The notes under the pieces are model-generated. The model was not told where the DNA came from and did not search any database. It saw only the letters and a list, made by a program, of their open reading frames with translations. DNA of 32,000 nucleotides from contig OW818675.1 of NCBI GenBank assembly GCA_942493095.1, positions 1,170,001 to 1,202,000 on the forward strand, given 5' to 3'. Origin of the DNA: Candidatus Electronema halotolerans. GTDB lineage: Bacteria > Desulfobacterota > Desulfobulbia > Desulfobulbales > Desulfobulbaceae. Shown in pieces: positions 3,478-30,299 of this stretch. The stretch's first letter is position 1; the number at the start of each line of letters is the position of its first letter. Made by a program: the position numbers and the translations under genes.

Positions 3478-3536
3478 TGGCCGTTGTCCGGTTAAGCCTG
3501 AATTTGAACTATACAACCATATAAGGAGACTTCACA

Positions 3537-4676: not shown

Positions 4677-4688
4677 GATTTCTGCGCA

Positions 4689-4719
4689 CAGCCGACTGGA
4701 CTTTTCCAGTCGGCTGTTT
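4689..4719 (+). terminator. Perfect 12-bp stem / CTTT loop hairpin with a short T-tract between dsrB and dsrD (attenuator or RNA-stabilising element)
   Basis: cagccgactgga (4689-4700) pairs perfectly with tccagtcggctg (4705-4716), followed by TTT. It starts 13 nt after the dsrB stop. Confidence 0.45.
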
Positions 4720-4749
4720 CAGATAAAACTCTGCCAATGAGGAAGAATT

Positions 4750-4995
4750 ATGGCAATGAGTGTTGAAGAAGTCGAGGCGGCCATTATTGCCAAAGCGACA
4801 AAATCGCCCAAGCCGCAGCTTTACATCAAGGATTTCTACGCCTGTGATCCTGAGCGCAAGCCAAGGGATATCAAGAAGATCGCTAATAATCTGGTCAACA
4901 AGGGCGAGCTGATGTTCTGGTCTTCCGGTTCCACCACCATGTATGCCCGGCCTGACCGGATCAAGAATGAAGAAGGTGCTGAAGGAGTCAACTGA
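4750..4995 (+). CDS. dsrD: DsrD, small winged-helix protein of reductive dsr operons
   Basis: 81 aa with the DsrD hallmark ...KKIANNLVNKGELMFWSSGSTTMY (WSSGSTTMY is conserved in DsrD). Positioned right after dsrB. Confidence 0.9.
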   Translation: MAMSVEEVEAAIIAKATKSPKPQLYIKDFYACDPERKPRDIKKIANNLVNKGELMFWSSGSTTMYARPDRIKNEEGAEGVN

Positions 4996-5030
4996 GTACA
5001 ACACCTTTTGTCAGCAGTCCTGATCCAGCA

Positions 5031-5059
5031 AAGCGGGAGCCGCAAGGTTTCCGCTTTTT
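5031..5059 (+). terminator. Rho-independent terminator of the dsrABD unit
   Basis: An 11-bp stem (5031-5041 / 5046-5056, including G-U pairs) closes a GCAA (GNRA) tetraloop and runs into TTTTT (5055-5059). Confidence 0.7.
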
Positions 5060-5077
5060 CATGTCCATGACCAACAG

Positions 5078-6130
5078 ATGAAGCAGAAAATTCTGCAAAC
5101 CGCATCTTCCGTGATGATTGTCCTGCTGCTCTCTTTCTTGGCAGGAGAGACAACAGTGCGCATCTTTCATTTTTTTCATCCGCTGTTCATTTTCTATGAT
5201 GATTCGTATAACCGGTTTCGCGGCAAGCCATTTGCCCCGGATTTTGATTTCAAACTGAATTCGCTTGGTTTCAAAGATACAGAATTTTCCCAGCAAAAGC
5301 ACAGCAGGTTCCGTATTGCAGCCATAGGCGACTCTTTTTCCTACGGCGTTGTTCCGTACAAAAACAATTATCTGACCCTGCTTGAATCCCAGCTCAAAGG
5401 CCAAGGCCTTGATGCTGAAGTCTGCAATTTGGGCATTCCCAGCACTGGGCCAAAAGACTATCTTGCCGTCCTTGAGCAGGAAGGTCTGCGGCTTCACCCG
5501 GACATGGTCCTGCTTTCATTTTTTATTGGCAATGATTTTCCTGAGAGTGGCAGAAAGAAGAAATGGCATGAATATTCCTACTTTGCTTCACTGCTTCGTT
5601 ATCTCTTGGCGGTCAGACCTAAATACGAAGGCCAGATTGTGCATGGAGCAGGCACCTATTGTGATGACTGTCCCAGCTTTGCTGCCAGCACGTACTTGGA
5701 TATTGAAAAAACACGGAGCAGCATTTACTTGACAGATAATGTCGAGTTTCCTGCCCTGCTTGCCAAGGCTCTCGATTATCTGGCCCAAATTCAGGATATT
5801 TGCGCAGAAAAAAATATTGCCCTGTCCGTGGTGCTCATTCCTGACGAAGTGCAAATCAATGCCAAGCTGCAAGAGCAGGTGCGGACGCAGTTTGCCACAG
5901 GAAAAAGCGGCTGGAACATCCTCCTGCCAAATCAGCAGCTTCAGGCCGGACTCAAGAAGATGCGCATTGATTTCCTTGATCTCTATCCTGCTTTTGCGGA
6001 GCAGGCCAAGACGAAACAGCTCTACAGACCACGCGACACGCATTGGAACATTGCCGGAAATCAGCTTGCCGCTGACCTGCTCCAGCAGCATCTTCATTCC
6101 ATACTGACTTTTCTGCCTAAAAATATATAG
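5078..6130 (+). CDS. Membrane-anchored SGNH/GDSL-family hydrolase (AlgJ/AlgX-like esterase or O-acyltransferase fold)
   Basis: 350 aa. N-terminal TM helix (SSVMIVLLLSFLAG), block I IAAIGDSFSYG, block V DTHWNIAGNQLAA. GC is clearly lower than in the neighbours. Confidence 0.65.
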   Translation: MKQKILQTASSVMIVLLLSFLAGETTVRIFHFFHPLFIFYDDSYNRFRGKPFAPDFDFKLNSLGFKDTEFSQQKHSRFRIAAIGDSFSYGVVPYKNNYLTLLESQLKGQGLDAEVCNLGIPSTGPKDYLAVLEQEGLRLHPDMVLLSFFIGNDFPESGRKKKWHEYSYFASLLRYLLAVRPKYEGQIVHGAGTYCDDCPSFAASTYLDIEKTRSSIYLTDNVEFPALLAKALDYLAQIQDICAEKNIALSVVLIPDEVQINAKLQEQVRTQFATGKSGWNILLPNQQLQAGLKKMRIDFLDLYPAFAEQAKTKQLYRPRDTHWNIAGNQLAADLLQQHLHSILTFLPKNI

Positions 6131-6202
6131 ATGTCAGGCCGCTGATCAACAATGTCGAACATAAACAGCCTGATTTGCCATCATAACCGTCGGTCTGAAC
6201 TG

Positions 6203-6241
6203 TTGACAGCATTTTGCCTCGTATGTATAATGTAATTACAT
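6203..6241 (+). promoter_or_regulatory. Consensus sigma70 promoter (TTGACA-17-TATAAT) with an overlapping 12-bp perfect palindrome ATGTAATTACAT (candidate MazE/MazEF operator)
   Basis: TTGACA at 6203-6208, TATAAT at 6226-6231, palindrome at 6230-6241. The mazE ATG follows at 6263. Confidence 0.7.
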
Positions 6242-6262
6242 AAACTGAGACAAGAGGTTGAT

Positions 6263-6517
6263 ATGGCTACATTGATCAGAATAGGAAATTCCCAAGGAGT
6301 GCGGATACCCAAGACGCTTGTCGAACAGGCTAGGCTGCGGGACAGCGAACTGGTCTTCAAAGTGCTTGCAGAGGGGCTGCTGATCCAGCCGGTCAGAAAA
6401 GCCAGACAAGGCTGGAAGGAGCAGTTTGAGCAGGCCCTGCAAGATCGAGAACATTGTGAGCTTGATCAGGAATGGCTGGATGCTCCTCTGGTTTCAGAGG
6501 AGGAATGGGACTGGTGA
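6263..6517 (+). CDS. mazE: AbrB/MazE/SpoVT-family antitoxin
   Basis: 84 aa. The N-terminus ATLIRIGNSQGVRIPKTLVEQARL is the swapped-hairpin AbrB/MazE fold signature. It has an acidic C-terminal tail and overlaps the downstream toxin gene. Confidence 0.85.
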   Translation: MATLIRIGNSQGVRIPKTLVEQARLRDSELVFKVLAEGLLIQPVRKARQGWKEQFEQALQDREHCELDQEWLDAPLVSEEEWDW

Positions 6518-6840
6518 AGCCGGAAATCCATCGATTTGAAATATGGCTGGTCCAGCTCGATCCGACCAAAGGTTCAGAAATCAAGAAAACCAGACCTTGT
6601 GTTGTCATTGCACCAGATGAAATGTCTGTTCTGCATACAGTCATTGTTGCGCCCATGACTTCCAAGGGTTTTGCTTTTCCAAGCAGAGTGCAATGCGTAT
6701 TTCAGGGGAAAAAAGGTCTGATCCTGCTTGACCAGATCAGGACGGTTGACAAGGCACGGCTGATGCAAAAGCTGGGCTTGCTTTCCAAAACCACACAGGT
6801 GAAATTGACCAACTGCTTGCAGGAAATTTTTGCATTTTAA
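6505..6840 (+). CDS. mazF: MazF/PemK-family mRNA interferase toxin
   Basis: [29 protein letters not shown]...VIVAPMTSK...[13 protein letters not shown] is a canonical MazF/PemK pattern. ATG 6505 overlaps the mazE end by 13 nt; the ORF-track start at 6472 is probably too long. Confidence 0.85.
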
Positions 6841-6875
6841 AAGACAACAAGCTACTATTACAGGAACGAAAAGCA

Positions 6876-7340
6876 ATGGCGAATTTCATTGAAGGCAATC
6901 TGCACGGACAGGGATGTAAAATCGGCATCGTTGTTTCCCGCTTCAACTCCTTCATTTCCGAAAAACTGCTGGAAGGGGCACTGGACATTCTGGTGCGCTC
7001 CGGGGTCAAGGATGAGGACATTGACGTGGCGCGGGTGCCGGGCGCGTTTGAAATCCCTTTAGTCACCCAGAAGATGGCCCGGTCCAAAAAATACGACGCA
7101 GTCATCTGTCTGGGCGTGGTCATCCGGGGCGCGACGCCGCATTTTGATTTTGTCGCCAATGAGGTTGCCAAGGGCAGTGCCCAGGTCATGCTCGACAGCG
7201 GCATTCCGGTGCTCTTCGGGGTGCTAACCACGGAATCCATTGAGCAGGCGATTGAGCGGGCCGGCAGCAAGGCAGGCAACAAGGGCGCGGATGTGGCGGT
7301 TGCGGCCTTGGAAATGATCAGCCTTATCAATCAGCTCTAA
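6876..7340 (+). CDS. ribH: 6,7-dimethyl-8-ribityllumazine synthase
   Basis: 154 aa. [23 protein letters not shown]...VPGAFEIP...[21 protein letters not shown] is typical RibH, followed by nusB as in many bacteria. Confidence 0.9.
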
Positions 7341-9463: not shown

Positions 9464-10903
9464 TCAACCCCGCCTGATTCGCATGGTCACGGCAAAGCCC
9501 TTGGGTTGCAGGTTGCGGGCTGTGACCGTGCCGCCGCAGCTTTCCACGCAGGTTTTGACAATCGCCAGCCCCAGTCCCACGCCGCCGGAATCACTGTCGC
9601 GGGAAGGTTCTGGGCGAAAGAAGGGTTCAAAGAGGCGGTCAAGGTATTCCTCTGCCACACCAGGGCCGCAGTCAGCAACCGTGATTTCCACTTGGCCGTC
9701 CTCTTCATTGGCCGCAACTGTGATCATACCTGCCTTGCCAGCATATTTGACCGCATTGCGGAGCAGATTGGCAATGGCTCTGGTGAGCAGCTCGACTGAG
9801 GCAGTGACTTGAATATCCGGCCTGACCTGCACCTCTATCGCCGCAGCAGAGGAAGACTCGCGCCGCGCTGCCTCCTGCACCACGGACAGCAGGCTTATTT
9901 GCTCCAGCTTTACTGCCTGACTGCCCATGTCAGCCCGTGAAAAGGCGAGCAGCTCGCCGATCAACCGGGAGAGATGGTCAACATCCTCCATCACATCTTG
10001 GACCCGCTCCTGATTTGCGCCTTCCAGCCGCTGTTCCAGCACCCCCAGACCAAACTGGATCCGGGCCACTGGCGAACCCAATTCATGCGAAACATCCCCC
10101 AAGAAACGCTTCTGCCCTTGGACAAAGGCGGACAGCCGGGCAGTCATGTGATTGACAGTCCGGGCCAGCCTGCCTATTTCGTCCGCTCGCGGTTCGTGGA
10201 TGGAGACGGCGAAATTGCCCTTGGCAATCTCCTCCGCAGCCTCTGTCATCCGGGCCAGCGGCTTGGTGATGCTGCGGATCATGGGCAGCCAGAAGAGGAC
10301 GGAGATAATGATGATCACCGCAGCGGCCAGCATCCACGGCAGGGGATCAAAGAAGAAGCCGTTGCCGGTGATGGAGTCGGAAACCGCCAGCAGCAGGACA
10401 GGCAGATGCCGCTCCGAAGCCTCAAGGAAGAGCGGCAGGCGGATGCCGAACCACCAGCGGGCAGGTGTGCCGCTGTGCATGATCAGCAAAGGCCGCCGGT
10501 GGCCCGGTCGCTCTGGCGGCTCACCAGCGCAGGGCGGTTCGTTCGGCGGCCCGCGCCGTTGGAGAAGCTCCTTGGCCCGCACCAGCACCGCCGCCGGGAT
10601 GCTACTCTTTTGCTTGGGCGGAAAGACCAAGCCGCTGGGCAGGACGATCAGGAAATCCACGCCATGAATCTGGCCATGCCGGGCAAGGACATCCGGCCAC
10701 TCATCCGGCGGGGCCTGCCCCAGATCGTGGTTGAGGAGCATCCCGGCAGTGCGCAGACGGTCTGCGCCCTGATGACCAAAGAACTCATCCAAGTCCATGC
10801 GCAGCTGCACGGCAAAGAAGGCAGCCAGCACTGTGGCCAAGAGCAGCAGGTTGAGGAAGAACCACGCTATGATCTTGGCAAAGAGAGAAGACGGCAGCTT
10901 CAT
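9464..10903 (-). CDS. Membrane sensor histidine kinase (two TM helices + periplasmic domain, HAMP, HisKA, HATPase_c)
   Basis: 479 aa. HAMP ITKPLARMTEAAEEIAKGNF...DEIGRLARTVNHM, H-box FLGDVSHELGSPVARI, N/G boxes LLRNAVKYA, DCGPGV, GGVGLGLAIV. ATGA overlap with the upstream RR gene. Confidence 0.9.
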   Translation of the reverse strand: MKLPSSLFAKIIAWFFLNLLLLATVLAAFFAVQLRMDLDEFFGHQGADRLRTAGMLLNHDLGQAPPDEWPDVLARHGQIHGVDFLIVLPSGLVFPPKQKSSIPAAVLVRAKELLQRRGPPNEPPCAGEPPERPGHRRPLLIMHSGTPARWWFGIRLPLFLEASERHLPVLLLAVSDSITGNGFFFDPLPWMLAAAVIIIISVLFWLPMIRSITKPLARMTEAAEEIAKGNFAVSIHEPRADEIGRLARTVNHMTARLSAFVQGQKRFLGDVSHELGSPVARIQFGLGVLEQRLEGANQERVQDVMEDVDHLSRLIGELLAFSRADMGSQAVKLEQISLLSVVQEAARRESSSAAAIEVQVRPDIQVTASVELLTRAIANLLRNAVKYAGKAGMITVAANEEDGQVEITVADCGPGVAEEYLDRLFEPFFRPEPSRDSDSGGVGLGLAIVKTCVESCGGTVTARNLQPKGFAVTMRIRRG

Positions 10904-11619
10904 GGCTGCTCCGGCGGGGCGATGAACATATAGCCTGCGCTGCGCACGGTCTGGATAAAGCGGGGCTGGCGCGGGTTTTCGCCGAGCTTGCGCCGCAGGG
11001 AGGAGATATGCACATCCACAGACCGGTCAAAGACATCATAATCCCGGCCAGCAACCGCCTCAAGCAGGTGATCGCGGGTCAGCACCCGGCCAGCGGCATT
11101 GGCCAGCACAGCGAGCAGGTCGTATTCCAGCGGAGTCAGGGTCAGCACTTCCCCGCCGAGCCGCACAGTGCGGGAATTCTGCTCAATCTGCAAGTCGGTG
11201 AAGCAGAGCACTGGCTCTCCTGCCTCGCTCCGGGTGGTCTCCGCAGCCTGCCAGCGGCGGGTCACAGCCCGGAGACGGGCGAGCAGCTCACGGGAGGAGA
11301 AGGTTTTCGGCAGATAGTCATCCGCGCCCATTTCCAAGCCAACAATGCGGTCGGTCTCCTCGCCCCGTGCGGTGAGCATCAGCACCGGCACGGTTGACAC
11401 CTGCCTGAGCTGTTTCAGGACCTCAAAGCCGTCCATCTGCGGCAGCATCACATCAAGAATCACGGCCTGATACTCCTTCTGCCGGAACAGCTCCAGTCCA
11501 TCCGGGCCGTTGTACGCCGCCTCGACCTCGTAGCCCATCGGCTCCAGGTAATCTCCCACCAAGCGGCAGAGCTTCCGGTCATCGTCAATCATGAGGATTT
11601 TCATGGTCTCGGCTTTCAT
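10900..11619 (-). CDS. OmpR/PhoB-family response regulator (receiver + winged-helix)
   Basis: MKILMIDDD...VILDVMLPQMDG...LMLTARGEE...GADDYLPKTFSSRELLARL...; C-terminus LTPLEYDLLAVL...IQTVRSAGYMF. ATG 11619 has AAGGAG 5 nt upstream and overlaps the ROCO stop (ATGA). Confidence 0.9.
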   Translation of the reverse strand: MKAETMKILMIDDDRKLCRLVGDYLEPMGYEVEAAYNGPDGLELFRQKEYQAVILDVMLPQMDGFEVLKQLRQVSTVPVLMLTARGEETDRIVGLEMGADDYLPKTFSSRELLARLRAVTRRWQAAETTRSEAGEPVLCFTDLQIEQNSRTVRLGGEVLTLTPLEYDLLAVLANAAGRVLTRDHLLEAVAGRDYDVFDRSVDVHISSLRRKLGENPRQPRFIQTVRSAGYMFIAPPEQP

Positions 11620-13817
11620 TGCCGCTCCTTCCGCCCGCTCAATATCTTCCAAAGCTGTTTGAGGTCGATGCCGAAACCTGAGAAACTTGGCTTCAGCATA
11701 AGCAGTTCCTTCTCATCCATCTGCGCTTTCATCATCCGCAGCAGTTCAAGCATCTCATCGTCTCTGCTCGGCTCCACCAAGCCAAGGAGTTCCTTTACAC
11801 TGTAGCACTTCTTTGAGCCGTCTGGAATAAAGACATCTGAACCTGCCTCAGCAAGATTGATCAAGGTCTCGTAATCGGCACTGCGCTGCGGGTCATCAGG
11901 CATGGGAATGCGCTCGCTGACATCAAGATGCTTAAAGGTGTTGTTGATCTCGCGCAAGGAGAACCAGAGGAAGTGGAGATATTCCTTGCGGCGCGGGCCA
12001 TTCACCCAGAGGTTGATACGCCGGGCCTCGGTATCCGCCCGCACTACGGCCTCAGAGCCGCTTTCCCGGTCTTGCAGCACTGCGCCAGTGCGCCAACTCA
12101 GAGCATCCTTGATCTGCTGATGCACCTTGACCATGAAGCGCGGCATGACCGAAGGCGGCAGGAAGTCATGATAATGGAGGACAAACTGGAGCGCGTCCGC
12201 CTCGTCGAAAGTAAAGTCCGGCTCAACCACACCAAGAAGTTGCGGGATCAGCACCCGCTCGCTGTCCAGCTCCCAGCACAGCTCAAACTTCTTCATCAGC
12301 TTGATGATGAAAACATGAGTCTCTGGCGGGTAGGAGTGCGGCTCACCCGGCTGCTGGCGCAGGATGTCCTTCAGGCTTTCCAAACGAAGAATGCCTTTGT
12401 CCGCCGCCACCTGCCCGCTGTTGATAATTTTATAGACCGCGTTGGTCACCCAGACCGGGTCAAGGACGTGGGTGGCATCAAGGATGAAATCTTTGAAATG
12501 AACGGCCACGCCCAGATCGTGGAGAAGGTCAACCAGCGTCTCTTGGCTGGCCTGCTCAGTGATGCCCGCATCGACGCAGATGCTGCCATACTCGCGGCTG
12601 CTGATATAGGACCTGCCGAGCCGGGCAATCTGCTCTTTGACCAGAAACCAGCTCCCCGGCCAGCGGATGCCGATCATCTCCACCCGCGCCAGTTCTTTAA
12701 GTAGGGTCTCGCGGAGACGGCTAATGCCATCGCCGTCAGCGCAGGAGGTTCGGAAAAAGCCTTTGATTGATGGATACTTTGCTTGCAGGAAAGGCCGGTT
12801 GATGTCAAAGGAGGGGTTGGCATCCTGCTTGTTGAGCACCACCAGCACGGGTGAGTCGCCGCCAAAGCTCTCGATATGCTGGAGCCAGTATTCGGGCCGC
12901 TCGTCCTTGCGACCATCGAGCACGAGGACATACAGGCTGCGCTTGGACAGAAAGAACTGGTGCGTGGCGTGCATGATCTCCTGGCCGCCAAAGTCCCAGA
13001 TGTTGACCTTGATTGGCTGGCCGCCCGCAGTTACGTCCCAGCCCCGGATGCTGATGCCGTGCGTGGTGTCTTCGTGCTGGTCAAACTCCTCGCCGAGGAG
13101 CTTCTTGACCAGCGATGTCTTGCCTGCTGCGCCGTCACCGACAAGGAGCACCTTTACTTGGTTGAGGGGCTGGTCTTCTGCTTGGAGATTGGCGAAATAC
13201 TGGCGGATGGCTTCGATGCCTTGACGGGCGATCTCTATCGGCGGCGAGGTGAGGGGGTTGCCGCTGAGGTAAAGTTCCGTCAGTTTAGTGAGCTGGCCGA
13301 TTTCTGACGGTAGGGCGCTGAGTTGGTTTGTGTCGAGGTTAAGCAACGTCAGACTATTGAGTTGACTAATCTCAGGCGGCAGACTGTTCAACCGGTTGGC
13401 GTAAAGGTTAAGCTTCGTCAGGTTCGTGAGCTGGCAGATTTCCAGCGGCAGGGCAGTGAGCTGGTTGCTGCTGAGGAGAAGCACTGTCAGGCTGGTTAGC
13501 TGGCAGAATTCAGGCGGCAGGGTAGCGAGCTGGTTGTTGTTGAGTTCAAGCCTCGTCAAGTTCGTAAGCTGGAACAGCTCTGGCGGCAGGGTAGTAAGTC
13601 GATTACCTCTAAGATTAAGTTCTTGCAACTTAGTTAATTGGCAGATTTCCTGCGGCAAGGAAGTCAGACGATTACCTTGAAGCTCAAGGCATGTTAAATT
13701 GGTTAACTGGCCAATCTCCGGCGGCAGCTCGATAAGTTGCTTGCCACTCAAATAAAGACTGGTTGTCCCCTTCTCCTTAGCCTTGCGTATTACCTCAAGC
13801 AGCTCTTCATTCGTCAT
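11616..13817 (-). CDS. ROCO-family protein: LRR - Roc (Ras-of-complex GTPase) - COR
   Basis: Eight 23-aa LRRs (LxxLxLxxNxLxxLPxEIxQ). G1 LLVGDGAAGKTSL, G3 WDFGGQE, G4 LNKQD. COR-like LDPVWVTNAVYKIINS. Start set at ATG 13817 (AGGTG 8 nt upstream; the N-terminus NEELLEVIRKAKEKGTTSLYLSG is typical). The track start at 13934 runs through a non-coding repeat array. Confidence 0.85.
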   Translation of the reverse strand: MTNEELLEVIRKAKEKGTTSLYLSGKQLIELPPEIGQLTNLTCLELQGNRLTSLPQEICQLTKLQELNLRGNRLTTLPPELFQLTNLTRLELNNNQLATLPPEFCQLTSLTVLLLSSNQLTALPLEICQLTNLTKLNLYANRLNSLPPEISQLNSLTLLNLDTNQLSALPSEIGQLTKLTELYLSGNPLTSPPIEIARQGIEAIRQYFANLQAEDQPLNQVKVLLVGDGAAGKTSLVKKLLGEEFDQHEDTTHGISIRGWDVTAGGQPIKVNIWDFGGQEIMHATHQFFLSKRSLYVLVLDGRKDERPEYWLQHIESFGGDSPVLVVLNKQDANPSFDINRPFLQAKYPSIKGFFRTSCADGDGISRLRETLLKELARVEMIGIRWPGSWFLVKEQIARLGRSYISSREYGSICVDAGITEQASQETLVDLLHDLGVAVHFKDFILDATHVLDPVWVTNAVYKIINSGQVAADKGILRLESLKDILRQQPGEPHSYPPETHVFIIKLMKKFELCWELDSERVLIPQLLGVVEPDFTFDEADALQFVLHYHDFLPPSVMPRFMVKVHQQIKDALSWRTGAVLQDRESGSEAVVRADTEARRINLWVNGPRRKEYLHFLWFSLREINNTFKHLDVSERIPMPDDPQRSADYETLINLAEAGSDVFIPDGSKKCYSVKELLGLVEPSRDDEMLELLRMMKAQMDEKELLMLKPSFSGFGIDLKQLWKILSGRKERQ
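13224..13760 (-). repeat. Coding tandem repeats: 8 leucine-rich repeats of 69 nt each within the ROCO gene
   Basis: The peptide units LTNLTCLELQGNRLTSLPQEICQ / LTKLQELNLRGNRLTTLPPELFQ / ... repeat head to tail. Confidence 0.9.
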
Positions 13818-13859
13818 TGTCTGCGCACCTGTGTTTGTTGGTTGTATAGCATTCGGAGT

Positions 13860-13974
13860 CAGCATGCTGACTCGGCAAGTACCAGCATGGTGGTAAGCCA
13901 AGTACCAGCATGGTGGTAAGCTAAGTTGCAGCATGCTGGAACGACGGGTTGCAGCATAGTGACTCCGTCGCCGT
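13860..13974. repeat. Five-unit tandem array with an exact 23-bp period, each unit starting with a CAGCAT(G/A)(C/G)TG palindromic core
   Basis: Cores start at 13860, 13883, 13906, 13929 and 13952 (cagcatgctg, cagcatggtg, cagcatggtg, cagcatgctg, cagcatagtg). Units 2 and 3 are near-identical (cagcatggtggtaagc[c/t]aagt). The array lies 43-157 nt upstream of the ROCO start codon. Confidence 0.9.
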
Positions 13975-22609: not shown

Positions 22610-23249
22610 TCAAAGCCCGCCGCCTTTCCTCGGCAGGACAATTTTCAGACAGTCCTCGCTGACCTCAAAGACCGGTTCCACGCCGTTGTGCTGCCGCATC
22701 AGAGGAATGACCTTGGTGCGCACGCCCATTCCCGGTGCGTCAACATAGCCGTAATCGCGCAAAATCTCCATGATCAGCGGATTGCGGGGAGAACGCTGCC
22801 CGGCGATCATGCGCCAGCGGCCTGCGAGCGGGCCATCCAGCACAGTGTCAAGCCGGGCCTGATATTCTTTGTCCGCACGCACCGGCAAAAATCATGAGCC
22901 GCAGTCCAGCCTAGGGCAAATAGCGGCGGGGCCGGATGCCGAAGCAGACCAGCCCGGCGATGGAGCAGACCTTGTTGCCCAGTCCGTCTTCAGCCATCAG
23001 GCCCAGTCCGAGCAGGCGTTCGATCCACTGCTCCCGGCTGCCCGGCACGTCCGGGTCTTCAATGATGGAGGCCAGATAAAAGTTGAGCCGGTCCAAGTCC
23101 AGCGAGTCTATTGAAGTTCCGGCGACAGGCAGGGTTTCCATATTCACAATCTCTTTTGCCAGCTGTTCCGGGTGGATGTCATCCCGTTTGAACTCCACGC
23201 CGGAGTTCTCGCCGTTGCGGATGATTTCAAGGAGTTCTGCTGTGCGCAT
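22610..23249 (-). pseudogene. Decayed COG2865-type regulator (AlbA_2/Schlafen N-domain ... HATPase_c_4 region), frameshifted and internally deleted
   Basis: The N-piece (23249-22911) reads MRTAELLEIIRNGENSGVEFKRDD...LAKEIV then jumps to ...DLDRLNFYL...AGLVCFGIRPRRYLP*. The C-piece (22888-22610), in another frame, reads ...RNPLIMEILRDYGYVDAPGMGVRTKVIPLM.... Most of the AlbA_2 core and the terminal wHTH are missing. Confidence 0.55.
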
Positions 23250-23423
23250 GAGTGATCTCTCTTGGTCGGTGATGGAAATTCCACATTTTTCCAGTTTGTT
23301 GCGTTCTTTATAATACTGCGCCGCCTCTTGTGCGACAACGAAAAAGACACGTTGCTCTGCCTGCTGCTCCATGATAGGATGGCTTGCCGCCGCCGGGTGG
23401 TCAGTTTGAGATGCAGATGAAAC

Positions 23424-23452
23424 TTGTTTGCACAAATTTTCTGCTGTATCAT
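23424..23452 (+). promoter_or_regulatory. Possible promoter of the ABC-3C operon (TTGTTT-17-TATCAT)
   Basis: Hexamers at 23424-23429 and 23447-23452, about 30 nt upstream of ATG 23484. No SD is visible. Confidence 0.3.
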
Positions 23453-23483: not shown

Positions 23484-24386
23484 ATGAACCTACAACAAGC
23501 CTACTACGAACAGAAATTTGAGAATGCCTTTCTGCGGGCAAAAGGAGACGAGTTCCAGACATTCTTTGAACGCCTGATGGGTTTGGCATGTAAGGCGGAT
23601 TTCATGGCCTGCCGTCCTTGGGGTAATATCGGCGACCGCAAGAACGACGGTTTCCTGAAGTCAGAGCGGCGGCTGTTTCAAGTATATGCGCCAAATGCGA
23701 TGGAAGCAAAGAAAGCCATCGACAAAATCACAGAAGATTTTGAAGGTGCAAAGGTTCATTGGGGCAAGCATTTCGACAAATGGGTCTTTGTTCACAACGC
23801 TTATGACGGATTGCCGCCGCATGTTCACGAAGTCATCCTTGAGTTTGAACGAGTCAATCCGGGAATTGTTTTGGAGCCTTGGGGACTGGAGGAGCTGCGG
23901 CTGATTTTCCGTCTTCTTTCAGAAGAAGACTGCATTTCTTGGTTTGGCTTGGCTCCAACGGAAGAAACAAAAGCCAAGCTCGGTTTCAAAGAACTCCAAG
24001 TTGTCTTTGAAATCTTGGCCAGCAATGCGGCACCTCCCAGTTTCACTGTCCAGCCAGTTCCGCAAGGCAAAATTGAAGCCAATGCGCTGTCTGAAAGCGT
24101 GAGAGAATTGATCAAAAGCGGCATGTCGAAAAGCTGGTTGGTTTCAGATTTTCTTGAAAAATGGCATGATGAAACCTTGGGCGAACGTTTGGCAGTCGCT
24201 TTCCGCGAGGAATACAAACGGCGGCGGGGAACAATGCCGCCCAACCAGATATTCTCTGAACTCCAGACATGGGCAGGCGGCAGAGAGCGCGGCACACCAG
24301 AACATGAAATGGCAGTGCTGACGGTGCTGGCCTATTACTTTGAGCGGTGCGATATTTTTGAAGAACCAAGAACAGTGCGGCCATGA
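23484..24386 (+). CDS. ABC-three-component (ABC-3C / Lamassu-like) effector component: N-terminal Mrr/PD-(D/E)xK-like module + helical C-terminal domain
   Basis: 300 aa. EFQTFFERLMGL...WGNIGDRKNDGF...RLFQVYAP resembles the Mrr-type E...GDxGxDG...QxK core, with Tyr in the Lys position. The C-terminus VLAYYFERCDIFEEP resembles the ABC-3C C-terminal domain. ATGA overlap with the next gene. Confidence 0.6.
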   Translation: MNLQQAYYEQKFENAFLRAKGDEFQTFFERLMGLACKADFMACRPWGNIGDRKNDGFLKSERRLFQVYAPNAMEAKKAIDKITEDFEGAKVHWGKHFDKWVFVHNAYDGLPPHVHEVILEFERVNPGIVLEPWGLEELRLIFRLLSEEDCISWFGLAPTEETKAKLGFKELQVVFEILASNAAPPSFTVQPVPQGKIEANALSESVRELIKSGMSKSWLVSDFLEKWHDETLGERLAVAFREEYKRRRGTMPPNQIFSELQTWAGGRERGTPEHEMAVLTVLAYYFERCDIFEEPRTVRP

Positions 24387-24628
24387 TTCTTCCTTCCAAG
24401 CATCTTTCTCAAGAACGCGCCTTGCTCTCTGTCGGAGCAAAGCTGCTTGTCTGTCTTTCCAAACCTAAGACGGTCTCGGCTCTGTGGGAAGAAATCTCCC
24501 GGCCTGTTGAGAAGCAGGTCAAGAAGCCAGCCTTGCGATATGATGCCTATGTTCTCACGCTTGATCTTTTGTTTATGATCGGAGCGATTGAACTTCAAGA
24601 CGGCTTGTTGAGGCGCAAGAAACCATGA
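24383..24628 (+). CDS. ABC-three-component system middle component (small helical/wHTH-like protein)
   Basis: 81 aa. ...LLSVGAKLLVCLSKPKTVSALWEEI...YDAYVLTLDLLFMIGAIE. Sandwiched by ATGA overlaps at 24383-24386 and 24625-24628. Confidence 0.6.
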   Translation: MILPSKHLSQERALLSVGAKLLVCLSKPKTVSALWEEISRPVEKQVKKPALRYDAYVLTLDLLFMIGAIELQDGLLRRKKP

Positions 24629-26337
24629 TTCACCGCATTTTCAGCAGCCTGCCAACCTTCAAGGAACTGGAATTTCATTCCGGTCTGAATATCCTCATCG
24701 CGCAGAAGGAAGCTGGAGCCACAGACAAGCAGACTCGGAACCGGGCAGGAAAGACCAGTCTGATCGAGATCATTCATTTTCTTGCTGGGGCGAATGTTGA
24801 GAAAGATTCCATTTTTCGTTCTGAGGCACTCAAGAACGAATCGTTCAGCATGACTTTCGACTTTGGCGGCGAATTAGTCACCGCAAGACGTTCCGGCAAG
24901 GAAGCAGCTAAACTGCATCTGGAAGGAGCCAATTTTCCCAACGGAAAGACGCAGCTTTCCAACAAAGATTGGATTTCTGTGCTCGGCGGCAAGATGTTTG
25001 GGCTGAATAACCTTGAAGGCAGTCCGCCCTCTTTCCGGCAGCTTTTTCCGTACTTTGTCCGCCGTCAGAACAGCAATGGCTTCATAGAACCAGAAAAACA
25101 TACTAAGATGCAAAAGCCGGGCGATGTGCAGACAGCTCTGCTTTACCTGCTTGATCTTGACTGGCAGATTGCTGGAGAATGGCAGCAAGTGCGTGATCAG
25201 GAAAAAACTTTGAAAGAGCTGAAAAAGGCGGCTGGCAGCGGTGCCTTCGACGGTTTCATTGGCAAAGCATCTGAACTTCGCACAGACCTGACAGTCGCCG
25301 AGGCGAAACTGAAAGAAATGCAGGAGCAGCTGGGCAAATTCCGCGTCCTGCCGCAATATGCCGAACTGGAGGCCGAAGCTGACCAGCTCACCAAGCAGAT
25401 CAACGAGCTGGCCAATGCCAATGTGGCTGATGCCGCAGCCATCCGCGATTTGGAGGCTGCCATGCGTTCTGAAGCTCCGCCGCCGCTTGATGAACTGGAG
25501 AGCATTTACGCCGAAGCTGGCGTTTCCTTGCCCGGACTTGCCCTGAAACGGTATGAAGAGGTGCGGGCATTCCATCAGTCGGTCATCCGCAACCGCCGCG
25601 ACTATCTTGCCGATGAGCTGGAGGCTGCCAAGCAGCGGGTGAAGGCGCGGGAGAAGCAGAAACAGGCTTTTGATGAACGTCAGTCTGTGGTGATGAATCT
25701 GCTGCAAAGCTGCGGTGCCCTTGACCAGTTTTCCAAATTGCAAGAAGAAGCCGCCCGGCAGAAAAGTGCAGTGGAAGCCTTGCGCCATCGTTTTGCCGCT
25801 GCCGAACAGTTGGAAGAGACCAAGAATGAACTGCATCTGGAGCGCAACCGGCTTGAACAGCGGCTCCGTCGGGACTTTGCGGAACAAAACGACCGCCTTG
25901 CCGATGCCATTCTTGCCTTTGAAGCAACCTCAAAGCGTCTCTATGAATCCGCAGGCAAGATGAATGTCGATCCAACCTCGAACGGCCCCAAATTTGAATT
26001 TCCCATGCAGGGTTCCCGCAGCAAGGGCATTAAGAATATGCAGATATTCTGCTTTGACATGATGCTCATGCGGCTCTGCGTCAAGCGCGGCATCGGCCCC
26101 GGTTTTCTTGTCCATGACAGCCACCTGTTCGACGGCGTGGATGGCCGCCAGCTTGTCAGCGCCCTCAAGGTTGGTGCGGAAACAGCAGAGCAGCTCGGTT
26201 TTCAGTATATCGTCACCATGAACGAGGACGATGCCTTTAAAGAGACTGCTGACGGCTTTGCTGTGCGGCAGCATGTCCTCCCGGTTGTTCTCACTGATGC
26301 GAAGGAAGACGGCGGTCTGTTCGGCTGCCGCTTCTGA
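24625..26337 (+). CDS. DUF2326-type ABC ATPase with an SMC/Rad50-like coiled-coil insert (ABC-3C / LmuB-like core)
   Basis: 570 aa. N-terminus IHRIFSS..FKELEFHSGLNILIA...NRAGKTSLIEIIHFL (Walker A). About 250 aa of heptad-rich Glu/Lys/Ala/Leu sequence. C-terminus QGSRSKG (signature-like) and GFLVHDSHLFDGVD (Walker B/D-loop). Confidence 0.75.
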   Translation: MIHRIFSSLPTFKELEFHSGLNILIAQKEAGATDKQTRNRAGKTSLIEIIHFLAGANVEKDSIFRSEALKNESFSMTFDFGGELVTARRSGKEAAKLHLEGANFPNGKTQLSNKDWISVLGGKMFGLNNLEGSPPSFRQLFPYFVRRQNSNGFIEPEKHTKMQKPGDVQTALLYLLDLDWQIAGEWQQVRDQEKTLKELKKAAGSGAFDGFIGKASELRTDLTVAEAKLKEMQEQLGKFRVLPQYAELEAEADQLTKQINELANANVADAAAIRDLEAAMRSEAPPPLDELESIYAEAGVSLPGLALKRYEEVRAFHQSVIRNRRDYLADELEAAKQRVKAREKQKQAFDERQSVVMNLLQSCGALDQFSKLQEEAARQKSAVEALRHRFAAAEQLEETKNELHLERNRLEQRLRRDFAEQNDRLADAILAFEATSKRLYESAGKMNVDPTSNGPKFEFPMQGSRSKGIKNMQIFCFDMMLMRLCVKRGIGPGFLVHDSHLFDGVDGRQLVSALKVGAETAEQLGFQYIVTMNEDDAFKETADGFAVRQHVLPVVLTDAKEDGGLFGCRF

Positions 26338-26352
26338 AGCGGAATCCTCCCC

Positions 26353-29133
26353 ATGCCCCCACTAAGCTGGAACGAAATCAAGTCCCGTGCGGTCGCCTTT
26401 TCCCGCGACTGGGCTGAGGAAGCCTCTGAGAACGCTGAGGCCAAGACCTTCTGGAACGAGTTCTTCCATATCTTCGGCATCAGTCGCCGCAAGATCGCCA
26501 GCTTTGAGCAGCGGGTCAAGAAGCTCGACAGCCGCGACGGCTACATTGACTTGCTCTGGAAAGGAATGCTGCTCATTGAGCACAAGTCGCGGGGCGGCGA
26601 CCTTGACCGTGCGCACGAGCAGGCCCTCGGCTATTTCCCCGGCCTCAAGGAGCGCGAGCTGCCGCGCTACATTCTGGTGTGCGACTTTGCCCGCTTCCGC
26701 CTCTACGATCTGGAGGAGGACAGCCGCCATGACTTCACGCTCACGGAGTTGCACAAGAACGTGCGGCTTTTCGGCTTCATAGCCGGTTATCAGACGCACG
26801 CCCTGCGCGAGCAGGACCCGGTCAATATCAAGGCGGCAGAGCGCATGGGCCGTCTGCACGACCAGCTCAAGGAGGCGGGCTATCTTGGCCAGCCGCTGGA
26901 AGTCTGCCTTGTCCGCCTGCTCTTCTGCCTCTTTGCCGAGGACACCGGCATCTTTGAGCGGCAGCAGTTTCAGGAGCTGATTGAGCAGCGCACCCGCGAG
27001 GACGGCAGCGATCTTGGCCCGCAGCTTGCCCAGCTTTTCCAGACCCTGAACTTGCCGGAGAGCCGCCGCTACAAGAATCTGGATGAGCAGCTTGCCGCCT
27101 TTCCTTTCATCAACGGCAGGCTTTTTGAGGAATCTCTGCCCATTGCCGCCTTTGATACGGCCATGCGCCAGACCCTGCTGGACTGCTGCGGATTGGACTG
27201 GTCGCGCATCTCGCCCGCCATTTTTGGTTCGTTGTTCCAATCCATTATGGACAAGCAGGCGCGTCGCAACCTTGGCGCGCACTACACCAGCGAGAGCAAC
27301 ATTCTCAAGCTGATTAAACCGCTCTTTCTCGACCGGCTGCGGGAGGAATTTGACAAGATCAGGAGCAGGAAGACGGGCCGGGACAAGCTGCTGGCCGAGT
27401 TCCATAAGAAGCTGCGCAGCCTGACCTTTCTTGATCCGGCCTGTGGCTGCGGCAACTTCTTGGTCATTGCCTACCGCGAGCTGCGTCTGCTGGAATTGGA
27501 CATCCTGCGTGAGCTGCTCAAGAACCAGAGGGGCCAGCAGAGTTTGGATGTGCGCGGCCTGCTCCGCTTGGATGTTGACCAGTTCTTCGGCATTGAGCTG
27601 GAGGAGTTTCCGGCCCAGATCGCCCAAGTTGCCCTCTGGCTGACTGACCATCAGATGAACCAGCGCGTTTCCGAGGAGTTCGGCCTCTACTTTGTCCGCA
27701 TTCCGCTCAAGACCAGCCCGCACATCATCTGCGCCAATGCCCTGCGCATGGACTGGAACGAGCTGATTCCGGCGGAGCGGCTCAGTTGCATCATGGGCAA
27801 TCCGCCGTTTGTGGGGAAAAAGGAGCAATCCGCCGAGCAGAAAGCTGATTTTGTTCCTGTCATGAAAGGAATCCATAGTGCCGGTCTGTTAGATTTCGTC
27901 ACCGCTTGGTATGTGAAAGCAGTCCGAATGATTCAAAGCAGTTCAATCCGCTGCGCCTTTGTCTCCACCAACTCCATCTGCCAAGGCGAGCAGGTCGGGG
28001 TTTTGTGGAGCTGGCTGCTGGCGCAGGGCATCAAGATTTTCTTTGCTCACCGCACCTTTCAGTGGAGCAATGAGGCGCGGGGCAAGGCAGCGGTGCATTG
28101 TGTGATTGTCGGCTTTGCTTATGAGGACATCAGCCCGAAATGGCTCTTTGAGTATGAGGACATCAAAAGTGAGCCTCAGCGCATCGCGGCGGAGAACATC
28201 AATCCATATCTTGTGAATGCGTCGAACGTGGTTCTTCAAAGAAGATCAAAGCCCATTTGTAACGTCCCGGAAATCAACAAAGGCAGCGAGGCAACGGACT
28301 TTGGGCATCTTTTTTTGAACGTCGAAGAAAAGGCATTTCTGGAAAAAGAGAATCCGCTTGCAAGCAGGTGGATACGCCAAGTCTTTGGCTCAAATGAATT
28401 CATCAACAATGAAGAAAGATTCTGTCTCTGGCTTGTTGGAATTTCTCCGGCAGAGCTGAAGACCATGCCTTTAGTCATGGAACGTGTCGCCAAAGTCAGA
28501 CAGGAACGGCTAAACAGCAAAAAAGACCGTACAAAAGAATGGGCTGATCAGCCGTTTTTGTTCAGCGAGAATAGGCAGCCGGAAAGCAATTATCTTGCAG
28601 TACCGAAAGTTTCTTCAGAGAGAAGGCCGTATTTGCCGATTGGCTATTTGAAGCCTGAACAGATAGCAACAGGAAGTCTGCAAGTTATTCCTTTCGCAGA
28701 GTTGTATCATTTTGGCATACTGAGTTCTATTATGCACATGGCATGGATGCGGCATGTCTGCGGTCGCCTTGAAAGCCGTTACCAATATTCCAACAGTATT
28801 GTTTACAACAACTTCCCTTGGCCGGACAATCCCTCTGCCAAGCAGCGGCAGGCGGTGGAAGACAAGGCGCAGGCTGTTTTGGATGCCCGCGCTCAGTTCC
28901 CGGACTCCTCGCTCGCTGATCTCTACGACCCGCTGACCATGCCGCCCGCGCTGCTCAAGGCGCACCGCGCTTTGGACAAGGCTGTGGATGCCGCCTACGG
29001 CAAAACCGACTTTGCCGCTGAGGCCGAGCGCGTCGCTTTCCTCTTTGATCTCTACCAGAAATACACGGCCAGCCTTCTGCCAGCAGCGGCAAAGAAGAAA
29101 ACATCGGGCCGACGGCGCAGGGGCAGTTCATGA
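26353..29133 (+). CDS. MmeI-family type IIL (IIG) single-chain restriction-modification enzyme (nuclease + gamma-class N6-adenine methyltransferase + TRD)
   Basis: 926 aa. N-terminus FWNEFFHIFG...GYIDLLWKGMLLIEHKSRG gives D66-X9-E76-X-K78, the same spacing as the MmeI nuclease motif as I recall it. Motif I FLDPACGCGNFLV, motif IV GNPPFVGKK. Size and order match MmeI. It starts 15 nt after the ABC ATPase stop. Confidence 0.85.
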   Translation: MPPLSWNEIKSRAVAFSRDWAEEASENAEAKTFWNEFFHIFGISRRKIASFEQRVKKLDSRDGYIDLLWKGMLLIEHKSRGGDLDRAHEQALGYFPGLKERELPRYILVCDFARFRLYDLEEDSRHDFTLTELHKNVRLFGFIAGYQTHALREQDPVNIKAAERMGRLHDQLKEAGYLGQPLEVCLVRLLFCLFAEDTGIFERQQFQELIEQRTREDGSDLGPQLAQLFQTLNLPESRRYKNLDEQLAAFPFINGRLFEESLPIAAFDTAMRQTLLDCCGLDWSRISPAIFGSLFQSIMDKQARRNLGAHYTSESNILKLIKPLFLDRLREEFDKIRSRKTGRDKLLAEFHKKLRSLTFLDPACGCGNFLVIAYRELRLLELDILRELLKNQRGQQSLDVRGLLRLDVDQFFGIELEEFPAQIAQVALWLTDHQMNQRVSEEFGLYFVRIPLKTSPHIICANALRMDWNELIPAERLSCIMGNPPFVGKKEQSAEQKADFVPVMKGIHSAGLLDFVTAWYVKAVRMIQSSSIRCAFVSTNSICQGEQVGVLWSWLLAQGIKIFFAHRTFQWSNEARGKAAVHCVIVGFAYEDISPKWLFEYEDIKSEPQRIAAENINPYLVNASNVVLQRRSKPICNVPEINKGSEATDFGHLFLNVEEKAFLEKENPLASRWIRQVFGSNEFINNEERFCLWLVGISPAELKTMPLVMERVAKVRQERLNSKKDRTKEWADQPFLFSENRQPESNYLAVPKVSSERRPYLPIGYLKPEQIATGSLQVIPFAELYHFGILSSIMHMAWMRHVCGRLESRYQYSNSIVYNNFPWPDNPSAKQRQAVEDKAQAVLDARAQFPDSSLADLYDPLTMPPALLKAHRALDKAVDAAYGKTDFAAEAERVAFLFDLYQKYTASLLPAAAKKKTSGRRRRGSS

Positions 29134-29249: not shown

Positions 29250-29360
29250 GCGCGAAAGAAAGCTGCTCACCCCTCCCCTCCAGCCGCTCCATGAGGAAGT
29301 CAGCAGCAGGCAAGATATAAAAAAAACTTGAGCAACCAACACACTTGAGAGGTGACTGCC

Positions 29361-30299
29361 ATGAAGAATCTGAGCAAAGGAGATAAATCGCAGGCTTTCT
29401 ACGAACGAACGGTGAAGGAGATGCGGCGTGAGTTGACGTTCCATGAGCAGGCGTTCGGCAAAGATCATCCCAAAGTGGTGAGCACGCTGAACCGGCTGGC
29501 CTCGTTCTGCAAAACGCAAGGCCACCCTGCGGAGGCGGAGCAATACTGGCAGCGGGTGCTGGCAATTGTTGAGCAAACGTACGGCAGAGACCATCTTGAG
29601 ACAGCGTCAGTTCTGATCGAACTGATCGAACTGTATGAAGAGCAGGGCCGCCCTGCGGACGCGGAGCCGCTGTATCAGCGCACCTTGGCAATCTATGAGC
29701 AGGCGCACGGCCCGGCGCACAAGTCTGTGGCGACCACCCTGCACAATCTTGCCCTGGCCTGCAATGCGCAGGGCCGCCCTGATGAGGCGGAAACGCTCCT
29801 GCTCCGCGCTGTGGCCATCTATGAGCAGTTGTTCGGCCCGGAGCATCCACAGCTGGCAGTTCCCCTGAAGAACTTGGCTACAGTGCATTTCAAGCAGGAG
29901 CGCAGCGCGGCGGCCAAGCCGTTCTACGAGCGTTCGCTGGCAATCCGGGAGAAGGAGCTTGGCCCAGAGCATCCGGTGCTCATAGAGCAGATAACCTCGC
30001 TGTCCGCAGTCTATTACGATCTGGGGGATGCTGATGCGGCGGAGCAGCTTATGCAGCGCGCACTGGCAATCAGCGAGAAGGCCTATGGAGCTGCCCACCC
30101 TGTGACAGCCCAGACTCTGAGCTATCTTGCCAGCCTGTATGAAGAGCAGGGCCGCTGCGAGGCAGCGGAAATGCTCTATGAGTGCGCTCTTGTCAGCATC
30201 AAGGCTGCGCTCCCCAGCGGGCATCCTGATTTGCAGCGGTTTCAGGAAAACCACGAGAGACTGAAAGCAAGGCTGGCTTGGCAAAACAGTCAGAGCTGA
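29361..30299 (+). CDS. Stand-alone tetratricopeptide-repeat protein (kinesin-light-chain-type TPR_10/12 units)
   Basis: About seven 42-aa units of the form AE.LYQRALAI.E...G..HP.VA..L.NLA.L. Start is ATG 29361 (GAGGTG 7 nt upstream). Confidence 0.8.
   Translation: MKNLSKGDKSQAFYERTVKEMRRELTFHEQAFGKDHPKVVSTLNRLASFCKTQGHPAEAEQYWQRVLAIVEQTYGRDHLETASVLIELIELYEEQGRPADAEPLYQRTLAIYEQAHGPAHKSVATTLHNLALACNAQGRPDEAETLLLRAVAIYEQLFGPEHPQLAVPLKNLATVHFKQERSAAAKPFYERSLAIREKELGPEHPVLIEQITSLSAVYYDLGDADAAEQLMQRALAISEKAYGAAHPVTAQTLSYLASLYEEQGRCEAAEMLYECALVSIKAALPSGHPDLQRFQENHERLKARLAWQNSQS

Follow-up and report, generated by a model that had tools for sequence, protein, structure and literature searches.

The 32,000-nucleotide (nt) stretch of Candidatus Electronema halotolerans DNA analysed here (assembly GCA_942493095.1, contig OW818675.1, positions 1,170,001 to 1,202,000; below, the window) carries at 23484-26337 of its forward strand three genes, A, B and C, coding respectively for an effector, a middle component and an ATPase. 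The results support the identification of this trio as an intact three-gene candidate anti-phage module of the Lamassu type, that is, of the ABC-three-component (ABC-3C) type. By its protein families, A-B-C is an ABC-3C system of the CTD10/MC6/DUF2326 subtype, which corresponds to the PADLOC candidate PDC-M68. We consider it a divergent branch of the broad Lamassu superfamily that, by analogy, probably works like Lamassu. Lamassu ranks among the most widespread bacterial immune systems and is present in about 10-15% of genomes. To our knowledge, all Lamassu structures and assays so far concern LmuB proteins of the DUF3732 type with Cap4 or lipase effectors. The ABC-3C systems were reportedly described by Krishnan, Burroughs, Iyer and Aravind in 2020 and are captured by the Pfam families CTD1-12, MC1-8 and DUF2326.

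Gene A (23484-24386), gene B (24383-24628) and gene C (24625-26337), all on the + strand, are open reading frames (ORFs) of 300, 81 and 570 amino acids (aa). Both junctions are ATGA stop/start overlaps of 4 nt, found at 24383-24386 between A and B and at 24625-24628 between B and C. This is exactly the same-strand module with two ATGA overlaps that had been proposed from the letters and a list of ORFs (the sequence-only reading). Ignavibacteria, Nitrospira, other cable bacteria and metagenomic contigs also carry a trio of 300/81-82/573 aa joined by 4-nt overlaps, and because the same sizes and overlaps are met in unrelated phyla, the A-B-C ORFs are not due to chance. C differs from the 573-aa homolog consensus merely by being 3 aa shorter.

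The G+C content of the trio is 52.0% versus 56.9% for the window, and the G+C content at third codon positions (GC3) is 0.52 for A, 0.52 for B and 0.60 for C versus 0.69-0.77 in the flanking housekeeping genes. The atypical GC3 argues for horizontal transfer, by which A-B-C probably reached Ca. Electronema halotolerans as one cassette with the MmeI-type gene that follows it. The lower GC content noted previously was thus recovered; the range given for it (38-53%) was roughly right, with a low end set slightly too low, as the lowest value over 100 nt is 41%. No clear Shine-Dalgarno sequence was detected before A, B or the MmeI gene, in agreement with the sequence-only reading for A and B; a GAGG stands 11 nt 5' of the C start. 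Numerous host genes within the window likewise lack such a sequence, so its absence is not diagnostic and was rejected as a sign of foreign origin. Upstream of A, a promoter-like TTGTTT-17 nt-TATCAT element (23424-23452, + strand) lies within the approximately 60 nt that are conserved 5' of A in the MmeI-linked cassettes: these 58-64 nt are 88-92% identical among the window and the loci L008 and L010, and not so in other contexts. The element was not listed by a consensus promoter scan and is considered here as a candidate promoter.

The assignment of the three proteins was carried out by profile searches. In Pfam, A matches CTD10 (PF20275; 6.8e-19, 69.2 bits for a cut-off of 28.1) at aa 173-293 (nt 24000-24362), B matches MC6 (PF20293; 3e-14, 53.2 bits versus a cut-off of 27.2) and C matches DUF2326 (1.9e-41) at aa 436-570, together with a weak AAA_23 match across its N-terminal half. 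These hidden Markov model (HMM) searches had been suggested as a check of the ABC-3C proposal, and they bear it out. The trio has all three defining components of such systems, namely a coiled-coil ABC ATPase, a middle gene of an MC family and an effector with a C-terminal domain (CTD), and no difference from them was found. In PADLOC, C is matched over its full length by PDC-M68B (1.2e-152, 508 bits) and A by PDC-M68A (1.8e-24), the latter covering the CTD (aa 162-294) and not the N-terminal domain (N-domain); genes matching the two models are adjacent, as PADLOC defines PDC-M68, whereas no PADLOC model covers the MC6 gene. RefSeq labels relatives encoded on plasmids 'ABC-three component system protein' and 'ABC-three component system middle component 6', and the search of NCBIfam returned nothing specific for the trio proteins. 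The CTD10/MC6/DUF2326 family is therefore already defined computationally by Pfam, PADLOC and the RefSeq names; this PADLOC and RefSeq listing, like the tight packing with the MmeI gene, was absent from the sequence-only reading. The PDC systems of PADLOC are untested candidates, collected by 'guilt by embedding' as genes lying inside type I restriction-modification (RM), BREX or DISARM loci after exclusion of known systems (Payne et al. 2024). For PDC-M68, the embedding in RM loci was seen independently in the present work.

The Pfam CTD10 model also matches C at aa 272-397 (about 1e-18) over the whole model, as it does A at aa 173-293. The idea that the CTD of A is a copy of the apex of the ATPase coiled coil was examined and rejected: BLASTP, hmmsearch --max and hhalign, the last with both narrow and broad profiles, found nothing. 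The CTD10 model of Pfam may be heterogeneous.

In the recent Lamassu papers, ABC-3C systems are treated as type II Lamassu (LmuA-LmuC-LmuB), CTD1-12 being types of the LmuA CTD and MC1-8 types of LmuC. B, assigned by Pfam and by RefSeq naming, is the LmuC counterpart. The order effector, small protein, ATPase in A-B-C is that of LmuA-LmuC-LmuB and of the short Lamassu/DdmABC systems of V. cholerae and Salmonella enterica (9hqu, 9hqx, 9uxh, 9nyg), and the sequence-only reading had pointed to this layout correctly. Short Lamassu is characterized by an LmuB of about 600 aa with an hhhhD[Q/S/T/E] Walker B and zero to two CxxC motifs, and the prototypical Walker A reported for LmuB is Gx4GK[ST] (Haudiquet et al.). 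C, a DUF2326-type SMC/Rad50-like ABC ATPase according to Pfam, PADLOC, AlphaFold2 (AF2) and Foldseek, consists of an N-terminal head (aa 1-175), a folded coiled coil (aa 181-438, nt 25165-25938) whose apex is rich in proline (aa 281-303) and a C-terminal head formed by DUF2326 (aa 436-570). A CxxC zinc hook is absent from C, as it is from the V. cholerae Lamassu ATPase.

The motifs of C were read in an alignment with 30 homologs that are 71-94% identical. The Walker A, T37-R-N-R-A-G42-K43-T44-S45 (24733-24759, + strand), is deviant and follows an insertion of about 10 aa; it is conserved in the homologs, with Q36, T37, R38, N39, A41, G42, K43 and S45 invariant. The Q-loop R146-R147-Q148 is invariant, as are the columns of a signature-like Q462-G-S-R-S466-K-G468 that replaces LSGGQ (26008-26028, + strand) and those of the Walker B F-L-V-H-D498, followed by S499 and by the D-loop F-D-G-V-D (26104-26121, + strand). 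The catalytic glutamate is missing from this Walker B, S499 standing in its place, which is the hhhhD[Q/S/T/E] pattern of short Lamassu. By its size, missing hook and hhhhD-S Walker B, C fits a 'short Lamassu'-like ATPase.

In the AF2 model of C (mean predicted local distance difference test, pLDDT, of 76), the ABC heads are split and the long helical insertion is broken at several points. As a query against the Protein Data Bank (PDB) with Foldseek, the model gave Bacillus subtilis YydD as top match (9a6c, E 4.5e-21, TM-score 0.52-0.53), and seven of the eight next matches were LmuB chains (E 2.8e-12 to 5.9e-9; 9hqx, 9hqu, 9uxh, 9ux7 and 9nyg, from four independent depositions). Rad50, SMC, RecN and JetC rank below LmuB, with the exception of the SMC head 5xei at rank 8. 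YydD belongs to the same Pfam family as C, with 18% identity. The 9a6c entry is an integrative model from crosslinking mass spectrometry in which this DUF2326 ATPase contacts YydB, the product of the neighbouring effector gene; the profile of A matches neither YydB nor any other solved chain. This YydD-YydB model is the single trace of experimental work that was found for the DUF2326 branch, in agreement with the little or none announced by the sequence-only reading, and no function of YydD or YydB is reported in the literature searched. The trio thus resembles short Lamassu by its ATPase of about 600 aa with a folded coiled coil and a Walker B lacking the catalytic glutamate, and by an effector made of a predicted N-terminal enzymatic domain and a CTD. 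It differs by the low identity of C to LmuB (merely 12-15%), by CTD10 and MC6 in place of CTD7 and MC3, by the TxxxxGKT form of the Walker A and by an effector N-domain whose family has no Pfam model and which showed no significant similarity to Mrr when the two were compared.

The N-domain of A covers aa 1-160 (nt 23484-23963) and precedes CTD10 (aa 173-293). An identical copy of A is recorded for Ca. Electronema halotolerans, a cable bacterium, which fits the DsrAB-like, HflKC and other genes of the window. At 90% identity, the family of A falls into more than 2000 clusters; the best 120 matches are all at least 70% identical to A and come from Desulfobulbaceae, Nitrospira, Ignavibacteria, Chlorobi, Verrucomicrobia, Gallionella and others. 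With Pfam, no family was found for the N-domain of the window at E<=10 and no consistent match at E<=5 for 45 diverse members, of which one matched PDDEXK_15 (0.017). A profile search over 1.84 billion representatives collected 1511 clusters carrying the N-domain. Among the best 150 of these, 83 have the N-domain plus CTD10 arrangement of about 300 aa and approximately 25 are long proteins in which the domain is usually N-terminal. The six long proteins with informative Pfam matches (P0247, P0252, P0254, P0255, P0277 and P0285) carry NB-ARC, NACHT or an AAA-type NTPase (AAA_14) and/or TPR/HEAT repeats, and are of the STAND type (signal transduction ATPases with numerous domains). The N-domain is shared with these STAND/NLR-like (nucleotide-binding leucine-rich repeat-like), or Avs-like, proteins at E 1e-45 to 1e-58. 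The N-terminus is the usual effector position of STAND/NLR-like immune proteins. The presence of the same domain at the N-terminus of NB-ARC/NACHT STAND proteins hence argues for an effector role of the N-domain of A. STAND proteins are single-chain NTPases, whereas the sensor of the trio would be an SMC-like ATPase with a middle component. In another representative, P0250, an A-type N-domain stands ahead of a glycosyltransferase-2 domain.

The residues conserved among members 34-67% identical to A are F24, Q25, D39, F40, G47, G50, D51, K53, D55 and G56, and further Y68, P70, K81, D85, W93, W100, H104 and N105. In the AF2 model, the N-domain (pLDDT 65-94) is made of alternating helices and strands (helices 22-39, 75-90 and 112-124; strands 56-58, 63-68, 99-104 and 130-133), aa 40-55 not being assigned to a strand. 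All Foldseek matches of this model are non-significant, the best nuclease-fold ones having E of 0.03-0.1, and they are mostly proteins of the restriction-endonuclease fold: XPF/Hef/Mus81, EcoO109I, EcoT38I, Vsr/DUF559, the N-domain of Rpb5 and phage entries named 'restriction endonuclease'. Two readings of a candidate catalytic motif can be proposed. In the first, a PD..DxK motif would be formed by D39 and D51-x-K53, conserved in 88%, 100% and 98% of the family representatives; in a Bosea homolog, K53 is replaced by glycine and K52 is present. In the second, Mrr-like, the motif would be GD51..D55G..Q66-x-Y68, with the lysine replaced by a tyrosine that is 98% conserved. An alignment with E. 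coli Mrr by hhalign superposes the GDxxxDG motifs with a probability of 0.6% and was rejected as evidence of kinship. Neither Pfam nor PDB profiles nor the Mrr hhalign related the domain significantly to a known PD-(D/E)xK member, at the level of sequences or of profiles, and PDB searches with A, B, C and their profiles returned nothing meaningful, the broad N-domain profile giving spurious HIV gp41 coiled coils. On these models the N-domain of A is probably restriction-endonuclease-like and a nuclease, a conclusion held with moderate confidence. The 'nuclease-like effector' of the sequence-only reading thus has partial support, from a restriction-endonuclease-like fold and motif and not from a significant match to a known nuclease family.

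In the LmuA1-LmuB2-LmuC1 complex, the oligomerisation CTD of the effector is held at the folded coiled-coil apex, the ATPase heads and LmuC bind DNA ends, and slow ATP turnover frees LmuA, which becomes an active nuclease by tetramerisation and leads to abortive infection (2025 Lamassu studies). LmuB-type proteins descend from SbcC and bind DNA ends. It is likely that A-B-C is a Lamassu-superfamily ABC-3C system acting by such a sequester/release mechanism, and from this analogy we infer for it a stoichiometry, a trigger, an effector chemistry and a defence phenotype. A dimer of C together with B would hold one copy of A, by its CTD10, at the folded coiled-coil apex, where A would be kept monomeric and inactive. 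The ATPase heads would then meet aberrant DNA, most likely free ends or replication intermediates of an invader, and slow ATP turnover by C, which is expected from a Walker B without the catalytic glutamate, would set A free. Free A would oligomerise through CTD10 and its restriction-endonuclease-like N-domain would degrade nucleic acid, so that the infection is aborted.

Several observations weigh against this Lamassu-like mechanism. The LmuA and LmuC models (PADLOC-DB 2.0, E<=0.01) match neither A nor B, and C matches the LmuB models only weakly (5.7e-10, 37 bits, and 1.1e-8), far under PDC-M68B. The comparison with PADLOC and LmuA/B/C models that the sequence-only reading had recommended hence gave the PDC-M68A/B calls and a weak LmuB signal, without LmuA or LmuC. 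Neither C nor its profile finds a solved LmuB, Rad50 or SMC by sequence among all PDB chains, and for this reason the relationship of C to solved LmuB is, at the sequence level, remote. The Walker A of C is not the prototypical Gx4GK[ST], as its first glycine is the invariant T37 and an insertion precedes it. B has 81 aa whereas the functional residues of V. cholerae LmuC extend up to K149, and because B is much smaller, the B-DNA and B-C contacts of Lamassu may not carry over. For A, CTD10 is modelled by AF2 with low confidence, and the nuclease assignment is drawn from topology, weak Foldseek matches and an ambiguous motif. In the literature searched on DUF2326, PDC-M68, yydD and YydB, no functional study and no experiment on this subtype was found. 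Taken as a whole, structure and gene architecture agree with membership of Lamassu; the HMM comparison does not for two of the three proteins, and the Walker A deviates.

The distribution of the trio was studied in a scan of one genome per species, in which a close relative of C was found in 201 genomes; the counts below are from the 80 loci that were kept. A is encoded upstream of C in 76 of them, and B occupies the middle position in 79. Of the four loci that lack A, at least two (L033 and L076) end at a contig edge. In the subclade of the window, where A is at least 60% identical, a same-strand RM gene lies within approximately 50 nt in about 20 of 46 loci, with three arrangements. The first is a classic type I system with hsdR 5' and hsdS/hsdM 3' of the trio. 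The second is a type I-like operon upstream of the trio, in the order R, KilA-N, fused M+S (L015, L019, L027, L028, L031, L035, L036 and L053), which codes for an HsdR-like protein of 846 aa, a KilA-N protein and a fused N6_Mtase + 2x Methylase_S protein of 846 aa. In L028 the stop of the fused M+S gene overlaps the A start by 4 nt, and in the other type I-like loci about 36 nt separate the end of the M+S match from A. The third is an MmeI-type IIG gene directly 3' of the trio, as in the window, L008/L011, L010 and L012, the distance being 6-19 nt in these last loci.

In the window, this MmeI-family type IIG RM enzyme (926 aa; 26353-29133, + strand) starts 15 nt 3' of C. It has all five MmeI Pfam domains (2.4e-24 to 7.1e-91) and is called REase_MTase_IIG by PADLOC (E=0); the ORF is intact and its translation carries the D-x9-ExK, DPACGCGNF and NPPF motifs. 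Its GC3 of 0.70 is host-like, unlike that of the trio. No terminator-like site was found between C and the MmeI gene, and the latter probably shares an operon with A-B-C and is co-transcribed with it.

A sister subclade (A 49-50% identical; L057-L090, L091 and L092) includes numerous cultured Proteobacteria, an IncF plasmid of Enterobacter kobei (pSG.H2a_1, L091) and a Brucella plasmid (B. abortus S19 plas1, L092). In 27 of its loci, a gene of the RelB/DinJ ribbon-helix-helix family stands about 55 nt 5' of A, and no linkage to RM genes was observed in this subclade. The RelB-linked trio resembles a four-gene form of the system that brings along a regulator or antidote of its own. C homologs are present on 53 plasmid records, of which 12 are predicted to be conjugative, and none was found in phage genomes. 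The Nitrospira trio adjoins toxin-antitoxin genes. No flanking repeats or mobility signals are common to all the trio contexts, shared flanks being confined to the MmeI-linked cassettes. This embedding in, or abutment on, type I and type IIG RM operons, the proximity of toxin-antitoxin genes and the location on plasmids argue for a defence role of the trio. In the literature searched, which did not cover the text of Krishnan et al. 2020, no description was found of the effector N-domain family or its sharing with STAND proteins, of the split between RM-wired and RelB-linked trios, or of the recurrent MmeI-linked cassette.

These contexts bear on three other explanations, which we consider less likely than the Lamassu-like one. 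The trio could be an SbcCD/Rad50-like accessory of the neighbouring RM system, which would recognise the DNA ends left by the restriction enzyme and degrade the fragments of the invader directly, so that restricted DNA is lost rather than repaired, without killing of the cell. Such a role would account for the close same-strand RM genes of three classes, some with 4-nt overlaps, and is compatible with the SbcC descent and the DNA-end binding of LmuB-type proteins. However, about half of the window's subclade and essentially all of the RelB-linked one have no RM neighbour, the N-domain of A is shared with STAND proteins, whose typical mode of action is cell suicide, and the characterised Lamassu systems work by abortive infection, so that a purely accessory function appears unlikely. 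Still less probable is that A-B-C is a selfish addiction or stabilisation module which, like a toxin-antitoxin pair, kills the cells that lose it and has no anti-phage role. The occurrence on plasmids, including a conjugative IncF one, the RelB/DinJ-family antitoxin-like gene of the sister subclade and the toxin-antitoxin pairs around the Nitrospira trio are in its favour, but the window's subclade has no RelB-like gene, the RelB-like protein may be a mere ribbon-helix-helix transcriptional regulator, a 570-aa SMC-like sensor would be superfluous for simple addiction, and both the LmuB homology and the RM wiring point to the sensing of foreign DNA.

The third explanation concerns the state of the cassette, which in the window is composed, in order, of a decayed AlbA_2/HATPase_c_4 gene on the - strand, A-B-C and the MmeI-type gene. 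The AlbA_2 (Schlafen-type) + HATPase_c_4 gene (22610-23435, - strand) is a pseudogene, left as fragments of 174 and 92 aa, of which the short one matches HATPase_c_4 in Pfam. It is intact at the same position in L010 (411 aa), and a homolog is cassette-linked in L012; compared with the L010 copy by tblastn, the window pseudogene is frameshifted, and aa 41-141 and about 261-325 are missing from it. That the trio would be, like this clearly degraded neighbour, a decaying passenger with intact ORFs and lost function is highly improbable, since A, B and C are full length, A and C agree with their homologs at all invariant and near-invariant columns of their alignments, and the downstream MmeI gene keeps all its domains and motifs.

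The Lamassu-like sequester/release mechanism can be extended in one direction. The DUF2326-type module could be a second layer coupled to restriction, in which the DNA ends left in the invader by the co-transcribed enzyme (MmeI-type IIG here, type I elsewhere) alarm the sensor, which releases the effector if restriction fails. We regard this relay as rather unlikely, and the tight wiring to RM genes makes it testable. The effector of such a relay may combine a restriction-endonuclease fold with a non-canonical active site (the invariant Y68/P70/K81/D85/H104-N105), in a domain that STAND/NLR-like proteins also carry. If true, the relay would be a hard-wired path from restriction to abortive infection, together with a new effector chemistry. 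More generally, tests of the CTD10/MC6/DUF2326 branch would tell how widely the 'sequester, then release and oligomerise' mechanism applies, as this branch is set apart by an ATPase so remote from solved LmuB, a middle component of only 81 aa and an unannotated effector domain shared with NLR-like proteins. Its repeated insertion in RM operons suits the question of whether DNA-end sensors read restriction products as an alarm, and culturable hosts with homologs make its study practical: besides the conjugative IncF plasmid pSG.H2a_1 of E. kobei, chromosomal copies are present in Pseudomonas zanjanensis, Stutzerimonas degradans DSM 50238 and Aeromonas rivuli DSM 22539. For the window taken by itself, the region is an ordinary defence island, which the sequence-only reading had correctly recognised.

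No tRNA gene that could mark an island border was detected in the window. Directly after the MmeI gene, at 29352-30299 (+ strand), a GTG-started gene codes for a TPR_12/TPR_10-rich protein of 315 aa. A ROCO protein of 772 aa (LRR-Roc GTPase-COR-A-COR-B) is encoded at 11616-13934 (- strand) beside a two-component system (9464-11652). A second stretch of low GC content (46-51%) extends over 4500-7000 and includes an ORF for an SGNH/GDSL-type hydrolase (5078-6130) and one without Pfam match (6737-7330, - strand). DsrAB-like sulfite reductase genes (2197-4676) lie just 5' of this stretch, and HflKC genes are also present in the window.

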